Of a stretch of 33,232 nt of DNA, positions 199 to 31,725 are shown one piece after another (the first letter of the stretch is position 1; every line of letters starts with the position of its first letter). The position numbers were made by a program, and so were the translations under genes. The stretch is from the NCBI GenBank assembly GCA_041694835.1, contig JBGFRZ010000050.1, positions 1 to 33,232 on the forward strand, read 5' to 3'. The notes beneath the pieces are model-generated. The model did not search any database, had not been told where the DNA came from, and worked only from the letters and a program-made list of their open reading frames with translations. The stretch comes from Ignavibacteria bacterium. Its GTDB lineage: Bacteria; Elusimicrobiota; Endomicrobiia; PHAN01.

Positions 199-293
199 AT
201 GAAACCCATAAAAATTAGAGTACCTGCGCCTGCGGCAAATCTCGGCAGCATGACCACGATGTGTTTGGATCGGCAGTTAATCTATATATAGAG
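199..293 (+). pseudogene. thrB: Duplicated, frameshifted 5' fragment of thrB
   Basis: ATGAAACCCATAAAAATTAGA...GCGGCAAATCTCGGCAGC nearly matches the thrB start at 2836 (MKPIKIRVPAPAANLGS vs MKPIKIRIPATAANLGS). After a frameshift it reads DVFGSAVNLYIE vs DSFGVALNLYNE. Confidence 0.85.
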
Positions 294-2835: not shown

Positions 2836-3774
2836 ATGAAACCCATAAAAATTAGAATTCCTGCGACGGCGGCAAATCTCGGCAGCGGATTTGACAGTTT
2901 CGGCGTCGCTTTAAACCTTTACAATGAAATTGAAGTGATTGAGATTAGAGGAGAGAGAACAGAGAACAGAGGACAGAGGTCAGAGGTCAGAATTGATATT
3001 AAAGGAGAAGGGAAGGATTCGCTTCCGGGAGATGAAAAAAATATCGTCTGGAAAGCGATGAAAAAAGTATTTAATAAAGCAGGTCAAAGGTTAAAGGGCA
3101 AAGGTCAAAATTTAAAAATAAAATTGCTCAATCGAATTCCCATGGCAAGCGGGCTGGGTAGTTCGGCGGCGGCGGTGCTCGGGGGGCTTCTTGTGGCGAA
3201 TAAAATTTGCTATAATAAACTTTCCGATGACGAAATACTGAAACTCGCTGTTGAATTGGAAGGCCATCCGGACAACATCGTGCCGGCATTTGCCGGAGGC
3301 TTGTGCATCTGCTACAGCGAAAACGGAAAAACCGGATATCTGAAACTGAAAATGACAAGCGATTTAAAAGCGGTCGTTTGCACTCCGAATTTCGAACTTT
3401 CGACGAAATTCGCAAGAAAAATTCTACCCCAAAAACTTCCTATGGAATCGGCGGTATTCAACCTCTCTCGCTCGGCCATTCTGGTCGCCTCAATTTTAAA
3501 ACAAAATTATGGACTTTTGAAAATCGGGATGGATGACAGGATACATCAGATTCACAGAGGGAGATACATACCCGGCATAAAAAAAGTTTTTGAAAAAGCG
3601 TATAAAAGCGGAGCATACGGCGTCGCAATATCCGGCTCGGGTCCATCTATAGTTTCATTCTCTTCGGCGATTAAAGCGAAAAGCGTTGCTTCTGCGATGG
3701 AAAAAGGATTTAAATCTACAGGTGTCAAATGCAGAAGTTTCATATTAGATTTTGAAAATAAGGGAGCCGTTTAA
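2836..3774 (+). CDS. thrB: Homoserine kinase
   Basis: PATAANLGSGFD, IPMASGLGSSAA (GHMP motif), EGHPDN, ISGSGPS. Confidence 0.97.
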   Translation: MKPIKIRIPATAANLGSGFDSFGVALNLYNEIEVIEIRGERTENRGQRSEVRIDIKGEGKDSLPGDEKNIVWKAMKKVFNKAGQRLKGKGQNLKIKLLNRIPMASGLGSSAAAVLGGLLVANKICYNKLSDDEILKLAVELEGHPDNIVPAFAGGLCICYSENGKTGYLKLKMTSDLKAVVCTPNFELSTKFARKILPQKLPMESAVFNLSRSAILVASILKQNYGLLKIGMDDRIHQIHRGRYIPGIKKVFEKAYKSGAYGVAISGSGPSIVSFSSAIKAKSVASAMEKGFKSTGVKCRSFILDFENKGAV

Positions 3775-13211: not shown

Positions 13212-13685
<474 letters not shown>

Positions 13686-13689
13686 AGCA

Positions 13690-13905
13690 GAAGATAGGGA
13701 ATAGCAAATAGCGAATAGTGCATAGAAGAGAGAGATGAGAGATGAGAGATGAGGGGTGAGAGGTGAGAGAATAGCGTATAGAGGGTAGAGGATAGAGGAT
13801 AGGGGACAAGGAATTGAATAAAAATTTCCATTCCCTAACCTCTCGTCCCTCGCCTCTGTCCCCTGACTTCTGCTCTTGTGCACTTGTGCCCTGTCCTATT
13901 CTCTG
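13690..13905 (+). repeat. Modular heptamer element, copy A (57-bp core 13801-13857, forward)
   Basis: ATAGC(A/G)A, (A/G)TGAGAG and ATAGAGG arrays, then core AGGGGACAAGGAATTGAATAAAAATTTCCATTCCCTAACCTCTCGTCCCTCGCCTCT, then CTTGTGC arrays. Confidence 0.92.
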
Positions 13906-15782: not shown

Positions 15783-16525
15783 AAAATGTAAAATTAAAAA
15801 TTGAGACTGTTGACGCTTCGCTAAAACCTTGCCACGGAGTAGGAATAGGACGCAGATTATCGCAGATTTGGTAGATATGTCAATCTTGTCAAAATCGGCA
15901 TTGAGCTGCGTTCAAAAATAAAAAAGCGGAGTAGGAATAGGACGCAGATTTTCGCAGATGAGTTTATAGTTGCTTTAATCTGCGTTTATCAAAGTTGTTT
16001 CTGCGTTTATCTGCGTTCAATTATTTTTTAGGACGCGGATTTACAGGATTATCGCAGATTAAAAACTTTACCACGAAAACACGAAAGTTAGAAATCACGA
16101 AAAATCCCTCTAAATCCCCCCTCCCCCCCTTTATTAAAGGGGGAATAAAAGGGGGATTTAGGGGGAAGCGAAGCAGGGGGATTTACAGTGACTTGTGCAC
16201 TTGTGCTCTTATGCCTTGTGCACTTGTGCAGACCAAGGTCTGCAACTACAAAACTTGTGCTTTGTTGCAAAAAATTTCTTACACATTTCTTTGTGTCTTG
16301 TGTGGTAGAAGAACTTTTTCAATAATCTCATATACATCGGGGAATGCTCCGAACGCAGAAAAATTAGCGAATAGCAAATAGCGAATAGATATATGCAGGC
16401 AATAGGCAATAGGGAATAAGCAATAGTGGCTGGTGGCTCGAAAAAATCAGTAATCGGTGACCAGTAATCAGTAATGGCGCCGTTATTCGTCATCCGTCAT
16501 TTCACTATTTGCTATTTACTGCTTT
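15783..16525. repeat. ~750-bp spacer tiled with several repeat types
   Basis: 33-bp direct repeat (15835-15867 and 15927-15959), CGCAGAT/ATCTGCG inverted arrays, CACGAAA units, a CCCCCTTTATTAAAGGGGG nested palindrome, CTTGTGC 8-mers, a GTAG hairpin and heptamer arrays. Confidence 0.85.
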
Positions 16526-16539
16526 TATTGGAGAATTTT

Positions 16540-18282
16540 ATGGAAGGAATTATCACGAAGGTTTCAGGGCCTCTCGTCGTAGCAAAAGGGCTTTATGGAA
16601 TAAAAATGTTTGATATGGTAAAGGTAGGCGCGCATGGGTTGATAGGCGAAGTTATCGAATTAAAGGAAGACACAGCGGCAATCCAGGTTTACGAGGAAAC
16701 GACCGGCATAGGCCCCGGAGAAAAAGTCGTGTCCGTGGAGCATCCGTTGTCGGTTGAGCTCGGCCCGGGACTTCTCGGAACTATATACGACGGCATACAG
16801 AGGCCTCTTGAAGTAATATATAACGAGAGGGGGGCATGGATCACAAAGGGGGTCGATGTGACGGGGTTGAATCACAGAAAAAAATGGCGTTTCATTCCGC
16901 AGAAATCCTCGGGCGATGAAGTCGTTGGCGGCGATATACTTGGCAGCGTCTCTGAAACAGAAATCGTCAGCCACAAAATAATGGTCCCTATTGGGATTTC
17001 GGGAACAATTAAAAAGATATCGGAAGGCGACTTCCCTGTCGATGAAGTTGTGGTTGTAATTGAGGACGCAAAAGATAAAAAAGATGTACAGATAAATATG
17101 GTTCAGCGATGGCCGGTTCGAATCCCCCGACCGTACAAAGAAAAATTGGCCCCGGACGAACCTCTAATTACCGGTCAGCGCGTGGTTGACACATTCTTTC
17201 CCGTCTCAAAAGGTGGAACGGCTTGCATCCCCGGCCCTTTTGGTTCAGGAAAAACAGTGATACAGCATCAACTCGCGAAATGGTCGGACGCGGACATTAT
17301 AGTTTATGTCGGTTGCGGTGAAAGAGGCAACGAGATGGCCGATGTCCTCCTGGAGTTTCCTCATCTAAAAGACCCAAAGTCCGGCGAACCGCTGATTAAA
17401 AGGACAGTTCTTATCGCGAACACGTCGAACATGCCCGTGGCGGCGCGCGAGGCGTCGGTTTATACGGGCATCACCATAGCGGAGTATTTCAGGGATATGG
17501 GATACAACGTCGCTTTGATGGCGGACTCAACTTCCCGTTGGGCCGAGGCGATGAGAGAGATGTCGGGACGGCTTGAGGAGATGCCAGGTGAAGAGGGTTA
17601 TCCCGCGTATCTTTCGTCGAGGATAGCGGAGTTTTACGAAAGAGCCGGGAAAGTCGTCTGCTGCGCTTCCGATGGAAGGATAGGTTCGCTTTCGGTAATA
17701 GGAGCGGTATCCCCTCCCGGAGGCGATCTTTCCGATCCTGTTGTTCAGGCGACTTTGAGGATAGTAAAAGTATTCTGGTCGCTTGAGGATAAACTCGCGT
17801 ATCAAAGGCATTTTCCTGCGATATCGTGGCTCAGGTCATACTCGCTTTATATCGACAATATAGAAAACTATATGAAAGAAAAAATAGCCAAAAATTTCAT
17901 CGCAAACCGCTCATCCGCGATGAAGATTCTTCAGGAGGAGGCATCGCTTGAGGAAATCGTGCGGCTTGTCGGCGTGGATGCTCTTTCCGACGCAGACCGA
18001 CTTACCCTTGAAACCGCAAAATCTCTGAGAGAAGATTTTCTTCACCAGCATGCTTTCGATCCGGAGGATACCTACTGCGCTCTTGAGAAACAGAACATGC
18101 TTATGGAACTGATTCTTAATTTTCACAAAATGAGGACTTTGGCTGTAGATTCTGGCGCCCCGCTTAAAGCGCATTCGGAGGTAAAAGAGAAGATATCGCG
18201 ATTAAAATATGTTAAGGCAGATGAAACGACACAGAGTATATCCGAGATTAAAAAACAAATTGAAGCGGAACTAAAATCCTAA
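16540..18282 (+). CDS. atpA: V/A-type ATP synthase subunit A
   Basis: P-loop [30 protein letters not shown] precedes ATG 16540. Confidence 0.98.
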
Positions 18283-19911: not shown

Positions 19912-20190
19912 AAGTAGATAGTAGATAGTAGATAGGGGATTGATTGGTAATCGGTTAACAGTTATCGGTGAAAGATGAGGGATGAGGGGTGAGAGGTCAG
20001 AGGTGAGAGGTGAGAGAATAGCGTATAGAGGATAGAGAATAGAGGATAGGGGACAAGGAATTGAATAAAAATTTCTATTCCCTAACCTCTCGTCCCTCGC
20101 CTCTAACCCATGGTCTCTGTTCTCTGCTCCCTGACCTCCGTCCTCTGTCCTCTGACCTCTGTTCTCTGTCCTCTGGCTTGTGCTCTTGCT
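19912..20190 (+). repeat. Modular heptamer element, copy B (core 20048-20104, forward)
   Basis: AGTAGAT x3, GTGAGAG arrays, 57-bp core (1 substitution vs copy A), CCTCTG(A/T) arrays. Confidence 0.92.
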
Positions 20191-20199
20191 CCGCTGCTT

Positions 20200-20820
20200 A
20201 TGAGATTAAACATAAACCCTAACAGGATGGAGTTGATAAAGCTTAAAAAACGGCTTGTTCTGGCGCGCCGCGGTCACAAGCTTTTGAAAGACAAACAGGA
20301 CGAACTTATGCGGAATTTTATGGAGCTTTTCGAGAGGGTTTACAAAGAGAGGTTCGAAACGGAAAAAGAATACTCTGCCATCAAAAAGGCGCATACTCTG
20401 GCGTCTTCCGTGATGAATCAGGCAGAAATTTTCGCAGCGACGGTTTGGAAGAAGATAAGCATAAAATTCGAATCGGTTTTAAAACAGCTTTTCAATCTGC
20501 GCGTTCCCGACTATAAAATTGAGATAACTGGCGAAGCAATATGGTGGAGCCCCTCGTATGTTCCCATGGAACTGGACGATATTTTTGAGAGGTTCAAAAA
20601 TTTTCTGCCGAGGTTTGTGAAACTCGCCGGCGACGAAAAGACATTAAGACTTCTCGCCGAAGAAATCGAACGCACAAGACGTCGCGTTAACGCCCTTGAG
20701 TATATACTGATTCCGAATATTCTTGAGACGATAAAATACATATCCATGCGCCTTTCGGAAAACGAGCGATCCGACCTTGTGAGACTTATGAAGGTTAAAG
20801 AGATAGTAAGAAGCCACTGA
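20200..20820 (+). CDS. atpD: V/A-type ATP synthase subunit D
   Basis: INPNRMELIKLKKRL..ARRGHKLLKDKQDEL, TRRRVNALEY. The upstream in-frame extension is repeat-derived. Confidence 0.96.
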   Translation: MRLNINPNRMELIKLKKRLVLARRGHKLLKDKQDELMRNFMELFERVYKERFETEKEYSAIKKAHTLASSVMNQAEIFAATVWKKISIKFESVLKQLFNLRVPDYKIEITGEAIWWSPSYVPMELDDIFERFKNFLPRFVKLAGDEKTLRLLAEEIERTRRRVNALEYILIPNILETIKYISMRLSENERSDLVRLMKVKEIVRSH

Positions 20821-20834
20821 TGGATATTGATAAA

Positions 20835-21150
20835 GCAGTAGAGTAGTAGAGCACAAGGGCACAAGGGCACAAGAGCACAAGTCAGAGGACAGAGTACAGA
20901 GGTTAGAGGCGAGGGACGAGAGGTCAGGGAATGGAAATTTTTATTCAATTCCTTGTCCCCTATCCTCTATTCTCTATACGCTATTCTCTCATCTCTCACC
21001 TCCGAATATCTCTATTTGCTATCCACTATTTGCTATATGTCATAAGCCATATGCTATACGCTTTCCGTTTCCCGCTTTCCGTTTTTCCTTGTCTACTATG
21101 TACCATCTGCTATCTACTATTCTCTTGCTTCTTTCCTCTTTTCTCTTTTG
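20835..21150 (-). repeat. Modular heptamer element, copy C (core 20905-20961, reverse)
   Basis: GCACAAG 8-mers, CAGAGG arrays, reverse-complement core, then TTTGCTA and CGCTTTC arrays overlapping the 5' end of the next gene. Confidence 0.9.
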
Positions 21151-22373
21151 CCGCAGAACTAAGGGTCTATTATGTCGCCGTCGGACAGGGCGATGCGATA
21201 TATATGGAACTACCCAACGGCGAGAACGTCCTTATCGACGGAGGCCCCAACAGTTCAAATTCCACCAATAACCCGCTGATATACTTCCTTGAAAGTAAAA
21301 ACATAAAAAAAATAAATCATGTTATTCTTTCACATCCTCACGCCGACCACTATGCAGGTTTGGGGCCGGCATTTGACAGATATGAAATCAAAAGATATTA
21401 TGATTCATTTTTGCTTGGCAGTTCTGCGGCGCAATCGTTCCGCAGCAAGGCGACAAGCGAACCGGGAGTAACCGTCGTCAACACGATGGATTATTCGTCT
21501 GGCTATACTTTCACATGGTCGACCACCACCCCGAAAGTAGAAGCGGTTATGCTTCATCGCGGCGACGCATTCGGGCAAACTCCTCCGTCGGCGAACGATG
21601 TGTCGCTCGTCTTTAGAGTTGTTTTTGGTTCATCAACTTTCATATTTGGCGGAGATGCCGGCGGCAGTGGCGGTTCATATAAAAATCTTGAAGGTTGGAT
21701 GGCGGGCACTTATGGCGGTGGTGTAGAGTCCGATTGCTATAAAGTTCACCATCATGGAAGTGCGTCGTCTTCCAGCGATTCGAATTTTATGTCGAAGTTA
21801 AACCCCAGATATGCGTTTATCGGCACCGACGGGATAAAATACGGCCATCCAACCATAATCTCTATGGACAATATAAATGTATATACAAGCAAGGCGGAAG
21901 AAAAAATCGTTCAGGAGATAAAAGGCAAGATATATACGAACATCTACCCCACCTATCTGAACGGAAATATAATGGTTGGAACATCGGGCGACGGGAAATA
22001 TAAAATCCAGACGAATTACGCTCCGACTCCAATAGACACAACTCCGACCGGAGACATCGTGGACATCCCCCCCGCTGAAAGAAAGACGCTTGGTTATGTC
22101 AATGCCGTCAACAATAAGTTTAATCCTGAAACCGAGTCAATGACCATCGAATATCTGCTCAATAAATCCGGGGAGAGTGTTTTTAGGGTTTATACGCTCG
22201 CTGGCGAAGTCGTCTATGAAGACAAAGTTCAAAATGTCCCCGCCGGTTCTCCGCTCCGATGGAATTGGAATGGCAGGAATTCTAACGGAGAAATGGTCGC
22301 TTCGGGAGCTTATTTTGTTTTTGTAAAAACACCGGAAGGCAAAGAAGTTAGAAAAGCGGTGGTAATGAGATGA
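20931..22373 (+). CDS. Exported ComEC/Rec2-like MBL-fold metallo-hydrolase with a C-terminal FlgD-Ig-like domain (start uncertain, 20931 or 21051)
   Basis: VGQGDAI, LIDGG, SHPHADH, KVHHHGS, YGHP. C-terminal FNP...VYTLAGEVV...WNGRNSNGEMVASGAY. Confidence 0.85.
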   Translation: MEIFIQFLVPYPLFSIRYSLISHLRISLFAIHYLLYVISHMLYAFRFPLSVFPCLLCTICYLLFSCFFPLFSFAAELRVYYVAVGQGDAIYMELPNGENVLIDGGPNSSNSTNNPLIYFLESKNIKKINHVILSHPHADHYAGLGPAFDRYEIKRYYDSFLLGSSAAQSFRSKATSEPGVTVVNTMDYSSGYTFTWSTTTPKVEAVMLHRGDAFGQTPPSANDVSLVFRVVFGSSTFIFGGDAGGSGGSYKNLEGWMAGTYGGGVESDCYKVHHHGSASSSSDSNFMSKLNPRYAFIGTDGIKYGHPTIISMDNINVYTSKAEEKIVQEIKGKIYTNIYPTYLNGNIMVGTSGDGKYKIQTNYAPTPIDTTPTGDIVDIPPAERKTLGYVNAVNNKFNPETESMTIEYLLNKSGESVFRVYTLAGEVVYEDKVQNVPAGSPLRWNWNGRNSNGEMVASGAYFVFVKTPEGKEVRKAVVMR

Positions 22374-23845
22374 ACAAAACAGGGTATAGTGAAATGAAGA
22401 CAGAAGACAGAGGTCAGAGGTCAGAGAACAGAGGACAGAGGTCAGAGAACAGAGGTCAGAGGTCAGAGAACAGAGGACAGAGGACAGAGGTCAGAGGTCA
22501 GAGAACAAATGACAGAGGACAGAGGACAGAGGACAGAAAACGGGAAGCGGGAATAGAAGAACGCAAAGCGGAAAGCGTAAAGGGTGAACGGCTTTTAACT
22601 CTTTCCGCTTCCCGCTTTCCGCTTTACGGCATTTTATTCTCTCATCTCTCATCTCTCATCTCTCACCTCTCTCTTCTATGCACTATTCGCTATTTGCTAT
22701 TCGCTCTCCCATGTCTTTACGGGGCGGGGACCACCGTCGGAGACGTCCTGAATTTGAATACTTCCATTAGGGCTATTTCGCTTGGCAAAACCCATCTTTT
22801 TAATTCAGAAGTGGGCGGCAATCCAGCGCTCATTGATGACAGGAATACCGTAGCTTTTAAATTTAACACCTCTCCGTTGGGTGTCCGGATTTTTGATATA
22901 GGCGGAAAGATGTCGTATGGCAGTTTTACTTTTGGAGCAGGAATAATTAATCAAAATGCCGGAAATATAGAGATTTACAAGCCACCTTTCGAGGATAATC
23001 CCGAAGTAAAATTCGTGAAAAATCTTCAAAACGATTTGATATTGACGGCGGTTTCGGCATATAGAGTAAACAGAATATTTCATGTTGGATTAAATATAAG
23101 GCATCTTAACACGAAGATTCTTGAGAACTACACTATGGATGCCACGGCTTTTGATTTAGGAATGGCTGTTAAATCAGGTAAGTTTAACCTCGCTTTTTTG
23201 TTAAAAAATCTTGGCTCGAAAGCTTCTTATAGTTATTCTAATGAAAAATTTCCGCTGGCTGCTGTGCATTCTTTCGGCGTAGGATTTTTTCCTTCGTATT
23301 TTGGTATAATCTTTTCAGCCGACAATGAGAACGAGAGGAAACAAACATTATTCAGGACCGGCATAGAGTGGAATCTCCCCGACGAAAAGATATATCCGCT
23401 CAACACACTTGCAATTAGAGGCGGATATTCGCAAAGGGGTGCGAAATTTAATTTTTCAAATTTTACATTTGGATTTTCTATGGGATTTTCATCGGTGCTT
23501 TTCGAGTATGCTCTCTCTCCACTTGACGATGTCGGACTCTCGCATAATCTCGGATTGTCTTACAGATTTGGCCACAAGACTAAAATACCGGAATCCAAGA
23601 TCAAAGAGAGGGTCATGATTGAATTTGTCGCAGGAAATATCGACGATAAATCGTTCGCAAAACTCGAAGATACGGCGCAACTTTTGAAAGAGTCGCCGCA
23701 TTACAGCGTAAAACTGGAGGGACATCTTGATTTGACCGACAAAATCGTTGATTATTTTGTGAGCTCCGAGCGGATTGCGGAATCGCGCATTATAGTTGAA
23801 GAAAAAGAAACCACTTATGTCATTATAACGCTTATAGAAAAGTAA
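22370..23845 (+). CDS. PorV/PorQ-like outer-membrane beta-barrel protein with a degenerate OmpA-like C-terminus
   Basis: LNLNTSIRAISLG...NPA, alternating beta strands, AIRGGY...FEYA...HNLGLSYRFG, then LEDTAQLLKESP...LEGH. The N-terminus is encoded by heptamer arrays. Confidence 0.65.
   Translation: MNKTGYSEMKTEDRGQRSENRGQRSENRGQRSENRGQRTEVRGQRTNDRGQRTEDRKREAGIEERKAESVKGERLLTLSASRFPLYGILFSHLSSLISHLSLLCTIRYLLFALPCLYGAGTTVGDVLNLNTSIRAISLGKTHLFNSEVGGNPALIDDRNTVAFKFNTSPLGVRIFDIGGKMSYGSFTFGAGIINQNAGNIEIYKPPFEDNPEVKFVKNLQNDLILTAVSAYRVNRIFHVGLNIRHLNTKILENYTMDATAFDLGMAVKSGKFNLAFLLKNLGSKASYSYSNEKFPLAAVHSFGVGFFPSYFGIIFSADNENERKQTLFRTGIEWNLPDEKIYPLNTLAIRGGYSQRGAKFNFSNFTFGFSMGFSSVLFEYALSPLDDVGLSHNLGLSYRFGHKTKIPESKIKERVMIEFVAGNIDDKSFAKLEDTAQLLKESPHYSVKLEGHLDLTDKIVDYFVSSERIAESRIIVEEKETTYVIITLIEK
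22396..22710 (-). repeat. Heptamer element inside the 5' coding region
   Basis: Long CAGAG(G/A)(T/A) array, GCGG(G/A)AA array and its complement, TCTCATC array, and CTATGCACTATTCGCTATTTGCTATTC (reverse complement of the copy A left arm). Confidence 0.9.
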
Positions 23846-26800
23846 TGGAACGCTCTAATTTCGTACATCTTCATAATCACACGGAATACTCTCTCCTTGA
23901 CGGGGCCTGCCGCATCTGGGACGAAAAAAAACCCTCGGAGCTTTTTAAGATAGTTTCAAACAAATACAAAATGAGTTCGCTTGCGATTACCGACCATGGG
24001 AATATGTTTGGAGCGATAGAGTTTTATGACGCGTGTTTAGAGTCGGGAATAAAGCCGATAATCGGCTGCGAGGCATATGTCGCCAAAGGCTCCCGCTTTA
24101 ACAAGGAACCGAAGTCGTATTCGGGCAATTATCACCTCACGCTCATCGCTCAGAACAACGTCGGATACAGGAATCTGATGAAGCTTGCGAGCATAGCTTA
24201 TACCGAAGGCTTTTACAGAAAACCGAGAATAGATTTTGAAGTACTGAAGAATCACTCCGAAGGTATTATCTGCCTTTCGGGTTGCTTGCAGGGGGAAATT
24301 CCGCAGGCTGTATTGGAAAACAAGAATGACGAGGCGAGGGCGTTGATCGGAAAATATAAAGAACTTTTCGGAAGAGAGAGATTTTATCTTGAACTGATGA
24401 ATAATGGCATGGAGGAGCAGCGCAAGGTAATAAAAAAACTCATGGAGTTTTCAAAAGAACTTGATGTCAAAGTTGTCGCCACTAATGACTGCCATTATTT
24501 GCACAAAGCGGATGCTCCGCTGCATGAAATTCTTTTGTGCGTAGACACCGGGACCACCCTCGACGATAAAAAGAGGCTCAAATTTTCCACGGACGAATTT
24601 TACTATCGCTCGCCCGAAGAGATGACGGAACTCTTCAAAGAGAACCCGTCTGCGATTCAAAACACGCTGAAAATATCCGATATGTGTGCGGTCGAGCTGA
24701 ACATGGGACAGTTTTTACTGCCTCACTACAGTGTCCCCGACGCCTTCACGCCGATTTCATATCTCGAAAAACTTTGCATAGAAGGGTTTAAAAACAGGTA
24801 CAAAAACCCTACCGACGAACATCATACGCGACTCAAAAAAGAACTCGCGACGATAGAGAAAATGAACTTTGCAGAATACTTTCTTATTGTCTGGGATTTC
24901 ATAGATTTCGCGAAAAAAAACAACATTCCTGTGGGCCACGGCAGAGGCTCTGGCGCCGGTTCCATAGTGGCGTATGTCCTGAACATCACAAACATTTGTC
25001 CAATAAAATACGGTCTTTTGTTTGAGAGATTTCTAAATCCCGACAGGCGCACGATGCCGGATTTGGACATTGACTTTGCGGACACCGGCCGCGACAAAGT
25101 GATAGAGTATGTCAGAGATAAATACGGCTCGGATCGCGTCGCCCAGATTATCACTTACAGCGCCATGCAGGCGCGCTCGGCAGTCAAGGACGTGGCCAGG
25201 GTCATGGGTGTCTCCGCAACGGACGCGAACAAACTCGCATCAATGATACCTCACACGGGGATAACTATATACGAAGCCGTCCACAAAGTGAGCGAACTTA
25301 AAAAAATATACCAGATGGACGATCGAATAAAAAAACTTTTCGACGCCGCTTCCAGAATTGAGGGGCTGAAAAGACATACCGGGATACACGCGGCGGGTGT
25401 GGTCATAGCCAAGGACGACATCACAAATTACGTTCCTATGGCGGTTTCGAAAAGATGCGACTCGGCTACGGTGACCCAGTATGACGGCGATTCTCTTTTG
25501 AAGCTCGGGCTTCTGAAAATTGACATACTCGGGATAAAAACTCTCAGCGTCATAGACGAATGCAAAAAGCTCATTAAAGAAAGACACGGCGTTGATATAA
25601 ACGACATCGCGTTTGACGATCAAAAAACTTTTAAGCTCTTCAAGGAGGCAAGCACATTGGGGGTTTTTCAGCTTGAGTCCTCGGGTATGCGGGATCTTCT
25701 CAGGAAGCTTAAGCCGACTAACATAGAAGATATAATAGCTCTTATTTCCCTCTACAGGCCGGGCCCAATGGGGGCGGGCATGCTTGATGACTTTGTCGCA
25801 AGAAAACACAAAAAAGTGAAAATTATTTACGATCATCCGTTGATGGAGCCCATACTCAGCGACACATACGGCGTTATTTTGTATCAGGAACATGTTATGA
25901 AGATAGCCCAGACGCTTGCGGGTTTTTCCGCCGGACAAGCCGACACGTTAAGGCGCGCTATGAGCAAAAAAGTCCTGGAGGAGATGGATAAACTCGAAAA
26001 CGAATTTGTTTGCGGATGCAAAAAAAATTCCATCGAGCCGAAAACTGCGAAAAAGATATTTGAGCAAATCAAATTCTTCGCGGGATACGGCTTCAACAAA
26101 AGTCATGCGGCGGCTTATGCGATACTTGCCTATGAAACGGCACATCTTAAAGCCAACTACACGATAGAATTTATGACGGCGTTGATAAATTCCGAGATAG
26201 GGAGAACTTCCAAGAAGGAAGAAGACAACAAGATTGTTACTTATTTGAGGGAGTGTGAAAACTACGGGATTTCGATATTGCCTCCATCTGTGAACGCTTC
26301 AAACGAGGTTTTTGCGATAGAAGGGAAAGATAAAATAAGATACGGACTTCTTGCAGTCAAAAATGTCGGCGAGGGCGCTGCCCGTCGTATAGTTGAAATC
26401 AGAAAGGGAGAAAAATATAAAGGCCCGTATGATTTTATGGTGAGGGCAATGTCGCATCACTTAAACAGAAGGAGCATAGAGTCCCTCGTAAAAGCGGGCG
26501 CTTTTGATGAATTCGGCGTAAATCCCGGAGCGATGCGAGGGGAGTTCCTCGCCAAGTTGGACAAATATATCGAGATTTCATCCAGCATAAATTCGAATGG
26601 CGGCGTTGGTTCGCTTTTGTTCGATTTCAAGGAGTCAGAGCCTAAAATAAATGTGGAGTTCAGAAATTTAAGCGAGCACGAATGTCTTCAGCAGGAAAAA
26701 GAGGTACTTGGGTGCTATCTTTCGGGGCATCCGCTGGCCAAATACGAAAACGAATTACTCAAATACTCGACTTGCAGAATCGCAGACCTTAATTCTGAGA

Positions 26801-27321
26801 ATCCGCCACGGGGCATCGTAAAAGTTGCCGGCATTGTAGAAAACGTGAAGCAGTTGATATCGAAAAAGGCTCAAAACGCCTATGCAAGATTTTTGCTCGA
26901 AGACACTGAAACTGATATAGAGGTGGTAATCTTTCCGAAAAATTACAAAAACGCCCTGGCACAAAAAGTCGTCAGCGGCAATATGATTGTGGTAAAAGGA
27001 AGACTCAACGACAGAGAAACAAGAGAAATCATAGCCGAAGACATAATGACGCTTGAAGAAGCCAGAAAAAACATACCAGTTAGATACGACTCCTTAACGA
27101 TAAAACTCGTTTCGGCGGGTCTTGAAGAAGATTTACTAATGAGGCTTAAAAAAATGTTTTTCAGTCACCCCGGCGATACAAAAGTTTATCTCGAGGCAAT
27201 GTCTCTGACGGGTTCAAAATACTCGATAGATCCCGAAATAAACGTTAAAGTGGACAAGACGTTTTGCGAAAACTTACAGAAGCTCGTCGGCGACGAAAAC
27301 GTGGTTTTGACAAAAGAATAA
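23845..27321 (+). CDS. dnaE: DNA polymerase III alpha subunit
   Basis: PHP domain HLHNHTEYSLLDG, GRGSGAGS, PDLDIDF, YGFNKSH, OB fold. Confidence 0.98.
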   Translation: MERSNFVHLHNHTEYSLLDGACRIWDEKKPSELFKIVSNKYKMSSLAITDHGNMFGAIEFYDACLESGIKPIIGCEAYVAKGSRFNKEPKSYSGNYHLTLIAQNNVGYRNLMKLASIAYTEGFYRKPRIDFEVLKNHSEGIICLSGCLQGEIPQAVLENKNDEARALIGKYKELFGRERFYLELMNNGMEEQRKVIKKLMEFSKELDVKVVATNDCHYLHKADAPLHEILLCVDTGTTLDDKKRLKFSTDEFYYRSPEEMTELFKENPSAIQNTLKISDMCAVELNMGQFLLPHYSVPDAFTPISYLEKLCIEGFKNRYKNPTDEHHTRLKKELATIEKMNFAEYFLIVWDFIDFAKKNNIPVGHGRGSGAGSIVAYVLNITNICPIKYGLLFERFLNPDRRTMPDLDIDFADTGRDKVIEYVRDKYGSDRVAQIITYSAMQARSAVKDVARVMGVSATDANKLASMIPHTGITIYEAVHKVSELKKIYQMDDRIKKLFDAASRIEGLKRHTGIHAAGVVIAKDDITNYVPMAVSKRCDSATVTQYDGDSLLKLGLLKIDILGIKTLSVIDECKKLIKERHGVDINDIAFDDQKTFKLFKEASTLGVFQLESSGMRDLLRKLKPTNIEDIIALISLYRPGPMGAGMLDDFVARKHKKVKIIYDHPLMEPILSDTYGVILYQEHVMKIAQTLAGFSAGQADTLRRAMSKKVLEEMDKLENEFVCGCKKNSIEPKTAKKIFEQIKFFAGYGFNKSHAAAYAILAYETAHLKANYTIEFMTALINSEIGRTSKKEEDNKIVTYLRECENYGISILPPSVNASNEVFAIEGKDKIRYGLLAVKNVGEGAARRIVEIRKGEKYKGPYDFMVRAMSHHLNRRSIESLVKAGAFDEFGVNPGAMRGEFLAKLDKYIEISSSINSNGGVGSLLFDFKESEPKINVEFRNLSEHECLQQEKEVLGCYLSGHPLAKYENELLKYSTCRIADLNSENPPRGIVKVAGIVENVKQLISKKAQNAYARFLLEDTETDIEVVIFPKNYKNALAQKVVSGNMIVVKGRLNDRETREIIAEDIMTLEEARKNIPVRYDSLTIKLVSAGLEEDLLMRLKKMFFSHPGDTKVYLEAMSLTGSKYSIDPEINVKVDKTFCENLQKLVGDENVVLTKE

Positions 27322-27493
27322 AAAATATGTAGAATAAGAATAGAGCACAAGGCACTAAAGAATAGTAGACGGTAGCGAGTAAACAGGGATTTGAAAAATG
27401 CCCCTATCTAGACAACTCGCTTATGTTCTACTGCGCTATTGTTCCATTTTTCTTATTTTTTCTTGTTTTTAACTTTTCAAAGGGAGGATTATT

Positions 27494-28483
27494 ATGAACA
27501 GACTCATTTTTGCTTTGTTTGCTGTTGTTATTTTTATTTCATCGGTTTTTTCGCAAGCATCAACTGCGCCCGTAGTTCAGGTGGTTGATCCAGTTGTTGA
27601 AAACATATCCAAATTAAAGGCCAAAGATCCAATGGTAAGACGGCAGGCTGCCGAATCCCTTGGGAGTTTGAGAGATGCAAAAGCCGTCAATCCGCTTATG
27701 GCTGCATTGAAGGATGAAAGCCCTTTCGTAAGAATGGCGGCGATAGATTCCCTCGGCCTTTTGCGAGCCTCATCCGCCGTTGAAAAAATCGGAGAGATTC
27801 TTTTAAACGATAAAGAATCTCAGATAAGACAAAGCGCCGCCATATCGCTGGGATACATAGGCGTGCCTGAGATATCGGAATATTTGATAAAAGCGCTGAA
27901 AGACAAAGAACCGGGTGTCAAATACGCAGCGGCGTCTTCTCTTGGTCAAATCCGCTCTGAGGATGCCGTTTCGGCCTTAACCGAGGCTCTCTCGGATCCC
28001 GACAGCGGAATGAAAAGAAGCGTTTTGGCGACTCTTGAAAGGCTGGACGCCTCGATAGCAGTTCCAAGGGCAAGAGCTCTCCTTTTCGACACAGACCCAT
28101 CGGTGAGGTCGCTTGCGGCGAAATTTGTCGGCAAGTTCAAGGATGCGGAAAGCCGTCAGAGTCTCGCCGAGATTCTGAAAGACAAAAATAACTCGGTTGT
28201 GATAAACGCCGCTTACGCACTGGGAAGGATAGGCGATACATCGGGATTTCAGGCGGTGTCTAAAATTGTAAAATCCGAAAAGGACACGGCCATTAGAATG
28301 GCTTCTATAGAGGCGCTTGAAGCGATAGGGACAAAAGACGCCATAAACGTTATCAGAGAGATGCTCAATGACCCACACGACTATGTTAAGAATTCAGCAA
28401 AATATACATTGATGAGGATGAGAGTTCCCATTGAAGATCCAAAAAAAACCGACCCAACGCGAAAAGCCCCTCCTCGGAGGTAA
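27494..28483 (+). CDS. Secreted HEAT-repeat protein
   Basis: Classical signal peptide MNRLIFALFAVVIFISSVFSQA, repeated D..VR.AA..LG motifs, GGGAGG RBS. Confidence 0.9.
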   Translation: MNRLIFALFAVVIFISSVFSQASTAPVVQVVDPVVENISKLKAKDPMVRRQAAESLGSLRDAKAVNPLMAALKDESPFVRMAAIDSLGLLRASSAVEKIGEILLNDKESQIRQSAAISLGYIGVPEISEYLIKALKDKEPGVKYAAASSLGQIRSEDAVSALTEALSDPDSGMKRSVLATLERLDASIAVPRARALLFDTDPSVRSLAAKFVGKFKDAESRQSLAEILKDKNNSVVINAAYALGRIGDTSGFQAVSKIVKSEKDTAIRMASIEALEAIGTKDAINVIREMLNDPHDYVKNSAKYTLMRMRVPIEDPKKTDPTRKAPPRR

Positions 28484-28490
28484 ATGACAA

Positions 28491-29447
28491 ATGTTAGAAC
28501 AGCAGAGCACAAGGGCGCAAGAACACAAGTGCATAAGTGCACAAGGGCACAAGGTAGAAGAGCACAAGAGCACAAGTGCACAAGGTACAAGAGCAGAGGA
28601 CAGAGGACAGAGAACAGGGGAGAGAGGACAGAGGACAGAGGTTAGAGGCGAGGGACGAGAGGTCAGGGAATGGAAATTTTTATTCAATTCCTTGCCCCCT
28701 AGCCTCTATTCTCTATACGCTATTCTCTCATCTCTCACCTCTCACCTCTCGCCTCTGTGCACTATTCGCTATTTGCTATTCGCTCTTCTTATTTCTTACT
28801 TCATACCTCTTACCTCTCGCAGTATTTATGCATGGGAAATCGTGGATATCCCCACGACGGAACCCGTCGATGCCTATACCTATCGGCTCGGTTTCAGGCT
28901 TTACTCGGACGGCGGCGTAATGACGCGCACAACTTTCGGGGTTTTCAGAAACATAAACATTGGCTTTGCATGGGATCTTAAAAATTTAATCGGAGTAAAG
29001 AACATAGAAATGATACCCCCGTCGGTGCATCTGAAAATTTTGATTTACGAAGGCAGTAAACACCTCCCTTCTTTCGCCATCGGCTACGACGGACAGGGTT
29101 ATTACTGGAACAAAGACGAGCAGGGTTATCGGGAGAAGGAAAAAGGGGTTTTTGTCGTGCTGTCGAGGGAGGTTTTCACTCCGAATCTTGAGCTGACGGC
29201 TGGTGCCAATGTCAACGATTTCAGAAAAAGTACCGTCCACGGCTTTGCGGGGATTTCATACATGATAGAAAAACTTTCATTTTTGATTGAATACGATAAC
29301 CTGCGCGACGAGAAGTTCCATCGATTGAATGGGGGTATCAGGTTTGCCGTCATACCGGAACTTAATTTTGAATTTGTCGGAAGAAACATGGCAAAAAGTG
29401 AAAATGCAGAAAGAGTCCTTAAGGTCAACTATATAGGAAGATTTTAA
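28491..29447 (+). CDS. YjbH-like outer-membrane protein (start uncertain)
   Basis: IVDIPT, LPSFAIGYDGQG, FLIEYD, LNGGIRF and a terminal F are typical of beta-barrels. The N-terminal ~110 aa are repeat-encoded. Confidence 0.7.
   Translation: MLEQQSTRAQEHKCISAQGHKVEEHKSTSAQGTRAEDRGQRTGERGQRTEVRGEGREVREWKFLFNSLPPSLYSLYAILSSLTSHLSPLCTIRYLLFALLISYFIPLTSRSIYAWEIVDIPTTEPVDAYTYRLGFRLYSDGGVMTRTTFGVFRNINIGFAWDLKNLIGVKNIEMIPPSVHLKILIYEGSKHLPSFAIGYDGQGYYWNKDEQGYREKEKGVFVVLSREVFTPNLELTAGANVNDFRKSTVHGFAGISYMIEKLSFLIEYDNLRDEKFHRLNGGIRFAVIPELNFEFVGRNMAKSENAERVLKVNYIGRF
28500..28815 (-). repeat. Modular heptamer element, copy D (core 28644-28700, reverse)
   Basis: GCACAAG 8-mers, CAGAGGA arrays, reverse-complement core, TCTCACC and TTTGCTA/TTCGCTA arrays. 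Confidence 0.92.
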
Positions 29448-29455
29448 GCTTTTAT

Positions 29456-30439
29456 ATGAAACATGGGCTTGAGTTTGAAAAACCAATCTTCGAGCTGGAA
29501 GAAAAAATTGTTTCGTTCAAGAATTCTCCATCCTCTCCGCCGCTGAACTTTAAGAAAGAGGTTGAATCGCTCGAAGAAAAATGCAATAAATTGAAAAAAG
29601 AAATATATGGCAATCTGTCGCCGTGGCAGAGGGTACAGCTTGCCCGTCATCCAAAACGGCCATACTTCATGGACTATGTCCCACATCTTTTCAACGAATT
29701 TTTGGAACTTCACGGGGACCGGAGTTTTGCCGACGATAAATCGATAGTGACTGGCATAGGGATAATAGGCAATTTTTCCTGCACGATAGTCGGTCATCAA
29801 AAAGGAAGGAACATAGATGAAAATCTTGTCAGAAACTACGGCATGGCTAATCCGGAGGGCTACAGGAAGGCCCTAAGGGTAATGAAACTCGGCGAAAAGT
29901 TCGACATGCCCGTGTTGACTTTTATAGATACGCCCGGCGCCTACCCCGGCATAGGCGCCGAGGAAAGGGGCCAGTCGGAAGCCATAGCGAGAAACCTCAA
30001 AGCCATGTCCTCCATGGAAGTTCCGATAATAGCGACGGTAATAGGAGAAGGCGGCAGCGGCGGAGCCCTCGGAATAGGTGTGGCCGATAGAATTTTAATG
30101 CTCGAAAACGCGTACTACTCCGTAATCAGCCCAGAAGGATGTTCCGCTATTTTGTTTAAGGACATCTCTCGTGCCGAAGAGTCCGCGGCAGCTTTGAAAA
30201 TCACAGCTGCGGAACTTATAAAACTTGGAGTTATAGATGAAATTATACCGGAGCCACTCGGAGGGGCAGATAAAGATCCCGCCGTGGCCGCAGCGATGCT
30301 CAAGTCGGCTTTGCTGAAAAACATTAAACCCCTGCTTGAACTCGACAAGGAAAAACTCATCAAGCAAAGATATCAGAAGTACAGAAATATCGGCGAATTT
30401 AAAAAGAGCAGAGGTAAAAGGGTAGAAGGTAAAAGGTAG
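29456..30439 (+). CDS. accA: Acetyl-CoA carboxylase carboxyltransferase alpha subunit
   Basis: ARHPKRP, PEGYRKALR, IDTPGAYPG, GEGGSGGALG, YSVISPEG. Confidence 0.97.
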   Translation: MKHGLEFEKPIFELEEKIVSFKNSPSSPPLNFKKEVESLEEKCNKLKKEIYGNLSPWQRVQLARHPKRPYFMDYVPHLFNEFLELHGDRSFADDKSIVTGIGIIGNFSCTIVGHQKGRNIDENLVRNYGMANPEGYRKALRVMKLGEKFDMPVLTFIDTPGAYPGIGAEERGQSEAIARNLKAMSSMEVPIIATVIGEGGSGGALGIGVADRILMLENAYYSVISPEGCSAILFKDISRAEESAAALKITAAELIKLGVIDEIIPEPLGGADKDPAVAAAMLKSALLKNIKPLLELDKEKLIKQRYQKYRNIGEFKKSRGKRVEGKR

Positions 30440-30660
30440 AAGAAAGAAGTAAAAAGAGCGAATAGCGAATAGTGCATAGAAGAGAGAGGTGAGAGGAGAG
30501 AGATGAGAGAATAGCGTATAGAGAATAGAGGATAGGGGACAAGGAATTGAATAAAAATTTCCATTCCCTAACCTCTCGTCCCTCGCCTCTAACCTCTGAC
30601 CTCTGACCTCTGCTCTTGTACCTTGTGCACTTGTGCTCTTGTGCTCTTATGCACTTGTGT
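30408..30660 (+). repeat. Modular heptamer element, copy E (core 30534-30590, forward)
   Basis: Begins within the accA 3' end. Core is identical to copy A. CCTCTGA and CTTGTGC arrays follow. Confidence 0.92.
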
Positions 30661-31673: not shown

Positions 31674-31725
31674 AAAAGTAGTTAGTAGATAGTAGTTAGT
31701 AGATAGGGAATAAGGAAGATTTGCT

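Follow-up and report, generated by a model that had tools for sequence, protein, structure and literature searches.

What becomes of an export signal when the DNA at its place consists of short tandem repeats? The question is raised by the draft genome of an Ignavibacteria bacterium (GCA_041694835.1, hereafter G000; 1.9 Mb, 42% G+C, 89 contigs), and here by its contig JBGFRZ010000050.1 (C75), whose entire 33,232 bases are the window analysed. The GTDB lineage of this uncultured bacterium is Elusimicrobiota, and the nearest language-model clusters of one of its proteins fit that placement. Three genes of the window, for a metallo-β-lactamase (MBL)-fold protein, a PorV/PorQ-like protein and a third protein once labelled YjbH-like, run near their 5′ ends through elements built from 7- and 8-base words. 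A preliminary description had proposed that these elements supply, or have overwritten, the export signals of the three proteins, and comparison with element-free orthologs, whose predicted ordinary signals end at the same point, agrees with that proposal. We consider it probable that heptamer-repeat elements replaced the ancestral signals, that the pyrimidine-rich arm of each element now provides the hydrophobic core of a Sec signal, and that the purine-rich arm forms an extended n-region where it lies in frame.

Ortholog comparison of the three genes

The MBL-fold (ComEC-type) gene (20931-22373, 480 amino acids (aa); all window features are on the forward strand, as are all substantial genes of the region) runs through an element at about 20835-21150, with its mature part from 21153. 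Its product matches Pfam Lactamase_B (52.2 bits, cut-off 22.7) and, at the C-terminus, FlgD_ig (30.0, cut-off 27), a type IX secretion system (T9SS)-sorting-like domain. The PorV/PorQ-like outer-membrane barrel gene (22370-23845, 491 aa) runs through the element at 22396-22710; its product aligns with NCBIfam PorV_fam over profile positions 7-326 of 326 at 43.9 bits (E=2.3e-11), below the curated cut-off of 90, and reaches only E=0.054 with Pfam PorP_SprF. The third gene (28491-29447, 318-319 aa) runs through the element at about 28500-28815 and encodes a conserved putative exported protein of no named family. Its YjbH label is not sustained: Pfam and NCBIfam searches returned no family at E<=0.1, hence no YjbH (PF06082) match, and an ESM Atlas cluster at rank 13 with 83% PF06082 members (score 0.96) is a lead only. 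A match to this protein was present in every one of the 13 genomes searched, counting G000, with open frames of 229-263 aa in the others. All three proteins form singleton clusters, no close strain was found, and a search of metagenome contigs with the mature part of the MBL protein confirmed no relative.

Comparison genomes G001 and G002 belong to the same family as G000 and to another genus, and G003 is a further sister genome. Orthologs of the three genes in sister genomes lack the element and have ordinary signal peptides of 24-41 aa, with a cleavage point that falls, in the alignment, where the stretch coded by the pyrimidine arm in the window stops. For the MBL protein, the G001 ortholog starts MKRAPAAPFAASKAAFVFLRTGFLCAALFLRFIVAAAAAAA/ELKVYYVSVGQGD (a slash marks the predicted signal end) and the window protein reads ...CYLLFSCFFPLFSFA/AELRVYYVAVGQGD, with aligned junctions ...IVAAAAAAA/ELKVYY and ...PLFSFA/AELRVYY. 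For the third protein, MKYDFRLAGFLAVVFLAAASSPAVPSLSA/WEVIDVPT in G002 faces ...ISYFIPLTSRSIYA/WEIVDIPT in the window (junctions ...VPSLSA/WEVIDVPT and ...SRSIYA/WEIVDIPT). The G001 PorV-like ortholog has a signal of 27-28 residues before AGLTVADAL, and the window gene has 119 codons before GTTVGDVL; in BLASTP, window residue 118 aligns with G001 residue 27, with 41% identity over 374 residues. As a separate observation, the MBL ortholog of G001 (locus L002, 1432-1560) has an ordinary signal peptide that ends with (GCC)7, a trinucleotide repeat giving seven alanines at the cleavage region.

The same holds beyond the three genes. Seven further G000 genes, two of them for lipoproteins, have orthologs with ordinary Sec or lipoprotein signals and the same aligned end, so that array-coded stretches end at ortholog signal ends in ten of ten genes tested against G001, G002 or G003. 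The mature N-termini line up to within a few residues of where the array stops, and the mature parts are full length and stop-free, with 41-60% identity to orthologs over their whole length. The gene order atpB-atpD-MBL-PorV-like is kept in G001 and G002, without arrays at the junctions, and the PorV-like ATG overlaps the MBL stop (ATGA) at 22370, as it does in the G001 ortholog.

An artefact of assembly or gene calling, with true starts downstream followed by signals of their own, would be favoured by the 89-contig draft and by the open reading frame (ORF) tool, which over-extends some genes through arrays (atpD from 20110, IlvD, atpA). The ten alignments leave no room for a downstream signal, and this explanation, largely refuted, is now very improbable. 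Thus the alignments place the repeat where the signal should be, with no independent signal downstream, in keeping with the earlier remark that the three genes have no other obvious signal peptide. On this comparison the three focal proteins are predicted exported proteins, with the repeat at the position of the signal, and the export-signal reading of their sequences is well supported. We infer that translation begins at the starts discussed below and that the products are exported and cleaved.

Architecture of the elements

In each element a centre separates a purine-rich array of 7- or 8-base words from a pyrimidine-rich one, and such elements sit between many genes of the window. The three reverse-oriented elements are of two types. 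Those at 20835-21150 and 28500-28815 share a 25-nucleotide (nt) AT-rich core (core type 1), which is common to five window elements and present in 16 copies genome-wide. In place of this core, the element at 22396-22710 has another centre (core type 2), which matches about 18 further places in G000. Searches with the 25-nt core returned 0 matches in the genome-contig and metagenome-contig collections. The arrays mix different words: TRF matches are 75-96%, the purest run being TCTCTCA x4.9 at 96%, and window arrays hold at most about 4-5 near-identical copies per run.

In the first element, the purine arm (20839-20927) has 8-mers (GCACAAGG) followed by heptamers and lies 5′ of the MBL ORF, whose frame is closed there by TAG at 20904-20906. 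The reverse-oriented AT-rich core (20928-20952) holds the ORF's first start, ATG 20931, and GAGAGG, a Shine-Dalgarno (SD)-like motif at the 3′ end of the purine arm, stands 7 nt before it. The pyrimidine arm with an extra pyrimidine heptamer tract (20953-21152) codes residues 8-74 of the MBL precursor, to FSFA/AE. An in-frame ATG at 21051 is an alternative start that would give a signal of 34 aa, still repeat-coded.

In the second element, about 20 heptamers of the purine arm (22397-22541) code RGQRSEN/RGQRTED repeats in the frame of the PorV-like gene. The core type 2 centre (22542-22634) has its own inner hairpin, and the gene's frame is the sole open one across it. The pyrimidine arm (22635-22710) codes ...ILFSHLSSLISHLSLLCTIRYLLFAL and is followed by the non-array codons PCLYGA (22711-22726), and the mature part begins at 22727. 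The gene lacks any in-frame ATG, GTG or TTG from the purine arm to the last 17 codons of the presequence.

The third element follows directly on the only in-frame ATG of its gene, at 28491, which stands 10 nt past GGAGG. Its purine arm (28504-28666; 8-mers, then heptamers) codes STRAQEHK.../RGQRTEV... in frame, the reverse-oriented AT-rich core (28667-28691) is read as EWKFLFNS, with the core ATG out of frame, and the pyrimidine arm (28692-28817) codes LPPSLYSLYAILSSLTSHLSPLCTIRYLLFALLISYFIPLTS, ahead of a cleavage-like site SIYA/WE at 28832/28833. Downstream of the purine arm the sole alternative start is a TTG (28691) without an SD-like motif.

Most of what had been described for these genes is present: three ORFs run through the reverse elements, all quoted peptides and the sites FSFA/AE, LYGA/GT and IYA/WE exist, and RGQRSEN/RGQRTED repeats are located in the PorV-like and third ORFs. 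Two of the quoted hydrophobic stretches had been swapped; CLLCTICYLLF belongs to the MBL protein and SHLSSLISHLSLLCTIRYLLFAL to the PorV-like protein. The claim that all three elements are in frame holds for both arms in the PorV-like and third genes and fails for the MBL purine arm.

Stop codons are distributed very unevenly between the strands. Counted over the coordinates given in the preliminary description, the three reverse elements have 5, 5 and 4 on the forward strand versus 22, 18 and 18 on the reverse strand, and the asymmetry of these in-ORF elements is beyond chance. One of three forward-strand frames is open throughout each reverse element, and it is the gene's frame for the PorV-like and third genes; the idea that all three frames are open was ruled out by the same count. 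All three frames of a heptamer array encode one and the same cyclic 7-residue peptide because 3 x 7 = 21, and words CTATTCG/CTATTTG translate to LFAIRYS/LFAICYL. The three elements fold as long imperfect hairpins (-84 to -114 kcal/mol), with z-scores against dinucleotide shuffles of -1.4, -2.1 and -3.95; two of the three are near shuffles, and the fold by itself is no evidence of function.

Predicted signals and their proposed origin

By crude rule, each of the three presequences has an h-region of the Sec type (signal peptidase I, SPase I). Their best 10-residue Kyte-Doolittle windows score 2.55 (MBL), 1.90 (PorV-like) and 2.57 (third protein) versus 2.26-2.88 for ortholog signals. Small or neutral residues stand at -1/-3 (SFA/A; LYG/A or YGA/G; IYA/W), aligned to the G001 or G002 signal ends, and the presequences are net positive (+2, +8 and +4, in the same order).

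The proposed explanation runs as follows. The genome has several hundred arrays of 7-/8-base words, mostly arranged as purine arm, centre and pyrimidine arm able to form a long hairpin, with one strand of each element nearly stop-free. In each of the three genes an element in its stop-poor orientation now occupies the stretch from the old start position to the signal-peptidase site; the ancestral signal codons have gone, and the old cleavage region and the mature protein have stayed untouched. Pyrimidine words (CTATTYG, TCTCTCA, CTCTGTC...), read as Leu/Phe/Ile/Cys/Tyr/Ser in every frame, would form the Sec hydrophobic core. A purine arm in frame, as in the PorV-like and third genes, would give a long net-positive extension of the n-region rich in Arg/Gly/Gln/Glu, with 119 and 114 aa to cleavage. 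In the MBL gene, translation would begin at the core ATG and the purine arm would be an SD-rich leader.

Possible translation of the purine arm

The MBL case raises a competing explanation for all of the genes: only the pyrimidine arm may be translated, from a start in the centre that is possibly not ATG, with the purine arm as a 5′ leader that carries SD-like GAGG/GGAG and pairs with the coding arm. The core ATG 20931 with its upstream GAGAGG fits this arrangement directly, and several other genes have an in-frame GTG or ATG in the centre. The PorV-like gene does not fit, having no in-frame start codon from the arm to its last 17 presequence codons, and the third gene would have to use its SD-less TTG. 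The 3′ end of 16S rRNA, sought for its anti-SD sequence, was not found in the G000 draft.

A frame test bears on both explanations. The set consisted of 27 hand-picked purine-pyrimidine elements with signal-like junctions, and frames were scored over the purine arm plus centre. Six of the 27 were open in all three frames and uninformative, 16 were open in one or two, and five were open in none, which means that those five genes (e.g., C87:25748, MNRKM..., and C41:11114; C numbers are contigs) must start in the element centre, as the leader arrangement requires. The gene's own frame was open in 15 of the 16 informative elements versus 8.67 expected (P=4e-4), which would be unexpected if the arm were untranslated. 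With the C62 gene cluster counted once, 12 of 13 were open versus 6.67 expected (P=0.001), and the unfiltered test gave 17 of 20 versus 10.67, with an inclusion rule that leans to open frames. We regard an untranslated purine arm throughout as a possible but less likely account, and prefer translation of the arm into an extended n-region wherever it is in frame.

Arrays appear to be translated in other proteins too. The genome's only full-length gltX match (C6:7683-9329, locus L029) is interrupted in frame by a purine-pyrimidine insert of about 63 aa (residues ~76-138) that reads RGQRTEV... then SQLSSLNSHLSPL... and is absent in G001, G002 and G003. A thrB-like GHMP-kinase gene of the window (2836-3774; Pfam GHMP_kinases_N and _C) contains two in-frame purine arrays, at residues ~32-58 and ~79-96 (EVIEIRGERTENRGQRSEV..., KAGQRLKGKGQNLKIK). 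Its first 51 nt are also repeated at window positions 199-249 with 92% identity. At C28:56969-57135, an in-frame purine-pyrimidine element lies in a 338-aa ORF with HisF-like downstream sequence.

Predicted array-coded signals across the genome

A periodicity-plus-skew scan detected 177 purine and 187 pyrimidine array segments (323 after merging) in G000; an earlier scan for purine/pyrimidine tracts at a threshold of 0.86 gave almost nothing. Array pairs within 200 nt are purine-then-pyrimidine in 80 cases and pyrimidine-then-purine in 0. The arms measure 43-231 nt, a spread that speaks against a fixed element. Among 1,662 crude longest-ORF gene models, 172 have an array near the 5′ end. A crude rule for array-coded signals (hydrophobic window, -3/-1 site near the array end, position within 170 codons) flagged 59 genes, of which about 51 were kept after eight evident false calls were dropped by eye: atpD, IlvD, RNase Y, an ABC permease, a glycosyltransferase with an internal insert, an 89-aa ORF, C87:17776 and C52:38500. 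A table of hydrophobic windows in the first 45 residues misses signals behind long extensions and was left unused.

Many of the approximately 51 predicted signals look textbook-like, such as MKKFRrfslfaicyllfaappp/LSA and MKRfisfsllaicyllfalpli/AQT, with a classic MKK or MRK start right before the array, and lipoboxes (SFTGC, LLVGC, PISGC) or cleavage-type motifs come directly after arrays. These observations bear on the notion that selfish or neutral insertions wrecked the signals and that the genes, no longer exported, are becoming pseudogenes. Wholly replaced ancestral signals and abnormally long presequences are what such damage would produce. However, around 51 genes are affected, conserved envelope proteins among them, their frames are kept, the motifs needed for processing stand directly after the arrays, and the mature parts remain full length, stop-free and 41-60% identical to orthologs; wreckage is accordingly an improbable account, and replacement of the signals by working ones is preferred.

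Several points weigh against that preference. The presequences, at 74 (or 34), 119 and 114 residues, are far longer than ordinary Sec signals of about 15-40 residues. Past its last Arg, the PorV-like protein has a short, weak h-region (YLLFALPCLY, best window 1.90). Very stable hairpins (-84 to -114 kcal/mol, with modest z-scores) would need unwinding by the ribosome. The hydrophobicity and -3/-1 rule produced evident false positives (atpD, IlvD, rplC), and the genes are partly paralogs, many of them PorV-like, so the counts are non-independent. Finally, the choice of C or T in CTATTYG near the array end follows codon effect as a weak trend only (14C:8T where silent, 6C:13T for Arg/Cys and 8C:13T for Ser/Leu).

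Heptamers and octamers located between the ATG and the cleavage site have a unit length not divisible by three, and gain or loss of one 7-base word would shift the frame. Placed between start codon and mature protein in genes for surface and envelope proteins, the arrays might therefore be phase-variation switches that toggle single exported proteins. In the closest described system, the opa genes of Neisseria, CTCTT pentamer coding repeats lie in the leader-peptide region and slippage switches expression (PMC3960869). The G000 arrays have mixed words, short perfect runs (84-96% matches) and few near-identical copies in the window, and the same arrays lie in frame in housekeeping gltX and thrB, where switching would harm. 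Switching is thus an unlikely explanation by itself, although it may add to signal replacement.

Four different proteins (787, 534, 311 and 310 aa) have an identical start and array-coded signal MRKPFTIRYSLFAICLLFAIR... Their loci are C6:1-132, C6:4084-4252, C6:6048-6217 and the end of C79 (L056), two of the copies being at contig ends; the shared leaders have at least 50 identical upstream bases, and two of them align over about 385 nt at 83%. Rfam at the gathering score gave no family in the window or in C6:1-7100, the shared leader included. A bolder reading, which we think rather unlikely, is that the hairpin is a portable, self-contained secretion-leader cassette (SD-like sites, start, charged n-region and frame-insensitive core) spread by recombination among unrelated envelope genes, whose RNA hairpin or 7-base length changes would let the cell tune or switch much of the secretome. 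Hints of it are the identical leader and signal of the four proteins, the 80:0 polarity of the arms and the start codon in the loop in several genes.

Orientation and neighbouring elements

Element orientation had been said to track gene type, from three reverse elements in genes for exported proteins and three forward ones before genes for cytoplasmic proteins. The forward cores do precede such genes. One element (13676-13900, core 13810) lies before V-type ATPase (V-ATPase) subunit E, another (19952-20200, core 20057) between V-ATPase B and D, and the third (30401-30660, core 30543) before class-II fructose-bisphosphate aldolase; they have 20, 18 and 20 stops, respectively, on the forward strand versus 2, 7 and 3 on the reverse strand. 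The conserved atpD start, MRLNINPNRM (20201), comes right after the pyrimidine arm, and the ORF tool's ATG at 20110 is spurious.

Genome-wide, 62 exported and 36 cytoplasmic genes have a pyrimidine-sense proximal array and 18 and 28, respectively, a purine-sense one, an association with an odds ratio of 2.7 (P=0.007, crude classes). Its whole source is the genes with an array inside the ORF, 51 of 51 of which have the open orientation. For genes whose start lies beyond the array, open and closed orientations stand at 15:14 among those with their own signal or transmembrane segment versus 37:27 among cytoplasmic ones (P=0.65). Reverse-orientation cores also precede cytoplasmic PGK (C72), SSB (C54) and ComM (C5), and stop-rich elements lie ahead of exported proteins that carry signals of their own (C52:35553, C62:34271). 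The association is one-way because only the stop-poor strand can enter an ORF; the split of three versus three in the window is a consequence of this and no general rule, and the original claim is right only in part.

The region also encodes further V-type ATPase subunits, DnaE, a HEAT-repeat protein and AccA, besides the MBL-fold, PorV/PorQ-like, conserved no-family and aldolase genes. Short AGTAGAT arrays (19913-19935, 31677-31706) directly follow the V-ATPase B and aldolase stops and give TAG in three frames. Arrays of 8-mers and heptamers at 16191-16475 precede V-ATPase A, and the listed ORF 16474-18282 over-extends through arrays (MAPLFVIRHFTICYLLLLL...).

Origin and significance

Three tandem copies of CTATTYG occur 161 times in G000 and 0 times in 40 relatives. 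The related words CTATTCA/CTATCCA have 40 matches in G001, 15 in G002 and 9 in G003, and the other 36 relatives searched have none with that pattern. G001 has such arrays in an intergenic hairpin, with a normal AAGGAGA-ATG start after it. An example is a heptamer hairpin at locus L044 2900-3030 (GTGGATAGTGAATAGTGGATAG ... CTATCCACTATTCACTATTCACTATCCAC), which is intergenic, lies between the ortholog of G000 C81:9096 (a signal-peptide protein) and the next membrane-protein gene, and is followed by a normal SD and ATG. A (CTATTCA)4 run also lies within the signal of a G001 PorV-like paralog. Word matches in the sister genomes suggest that the array habit predates this genus and that the words turn over, with G000 having expanded its words and absorbed many of them into signals.

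Signal peptides carry little sequence information, and G000 shows how far this can go, with repeat DNA having seemingly replaced the export signals of about 50 conserved proteins. If this is true, it offers a concrete route for the origin and turnover of targeting signals. It would also mean that start calling and signal prediction err in repeat-rich uncultured lineages, where annotated proteins might be 60-90 residues too long or be classed as non-secreted. Such genes would provide material for studies of Sec tolerance of long charged N-terminal extensions and of heptamer arrays as switches.

Comparison with known systems

A literature search, which did not cover supplements, found no wholesale replacement of signals by heptamer arrays and only single-gene precedents (opa, RU-2). 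Extended signal peptide regions (ESPR) of autotransporters combine a Sec signal with a conserved N-terminal extension of about 25 residues. The G000 presequences are similar in having a long extension before a putative Sec signal, here of 60-90 repeat-coded Arg/Gly/Gln/Glu residues.

At the DNA level, heptanucleotide repeats are a known and little-understood class of bacterial simple repeats (PMC4692102, PMC4679880), such as TAACTGA in marine Beggiatoaceae (PMC4679880) and GGGAATC/GGGGAYT in Xanthomonas and Nostoc (PMC4692102). They resemble the G000 arrays as abundant 7-base tandems that occur near start codons, sometimes as inverted pairs, and turn over quickly between relatives (PMC4679880, PMC4692102). 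They are described there as non-coding and mostly intergenic, whereas a large share of the G000 arrays lies inside ORFs as putative export signals; the term "signal peptide" occurs 0 times in PMC4679880.

Rickettsia palindromic elements (RPE) are in-frame insertions in protein genes (Ogata et al. 2000, via PMC2229807). Like them, the G000 elements are hairpin repeats that lie in frame in genes without breaking them (gltX, thrB and hisF), and they appear to form signals as well. RPE have a fixed sequence of 105-146 bp without tandem heptamer arrays, and the summary in PMC2229807 was not seen to describe them as signal peptides.

Neisseria opa offers the closest parallel at the coding level, a pyrimidine-rich tandem repeat of non-3n unit length in the signal-coding region, in that case of outer-membrane proteins and translated (PMC3960869). 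The opa repeats are perfect, consist of a single word and have proven switching (PMC3960869), in contrast to the mixed heptamers and octamers of G000, which are usually one arm of a hairpin and occur in about 50 unrelated genes. In Yersinia, the signal peptide predicted for YPO1552 is formed in part by the palindromic RU-2/YAPL element (Delihas 2007, PMC2759123; PMC2229807). This is likewise a repeated palindromic intergenic element, fused in frame, that provides hydrophobic residues for a predicted signal (PMC2759123). RU-2 does so at one locus, as a fixed 168-bp sequence resembling a miniature inverted-repeat transposable element (MITE), and is thought to have created a new small protein (PMC2759123). 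Unlike RU-2, the G000 elements are word-built, variable in length and genome-wide, and in conserved proteins they appear to take the place of signals that are ordinary in the orthologs.

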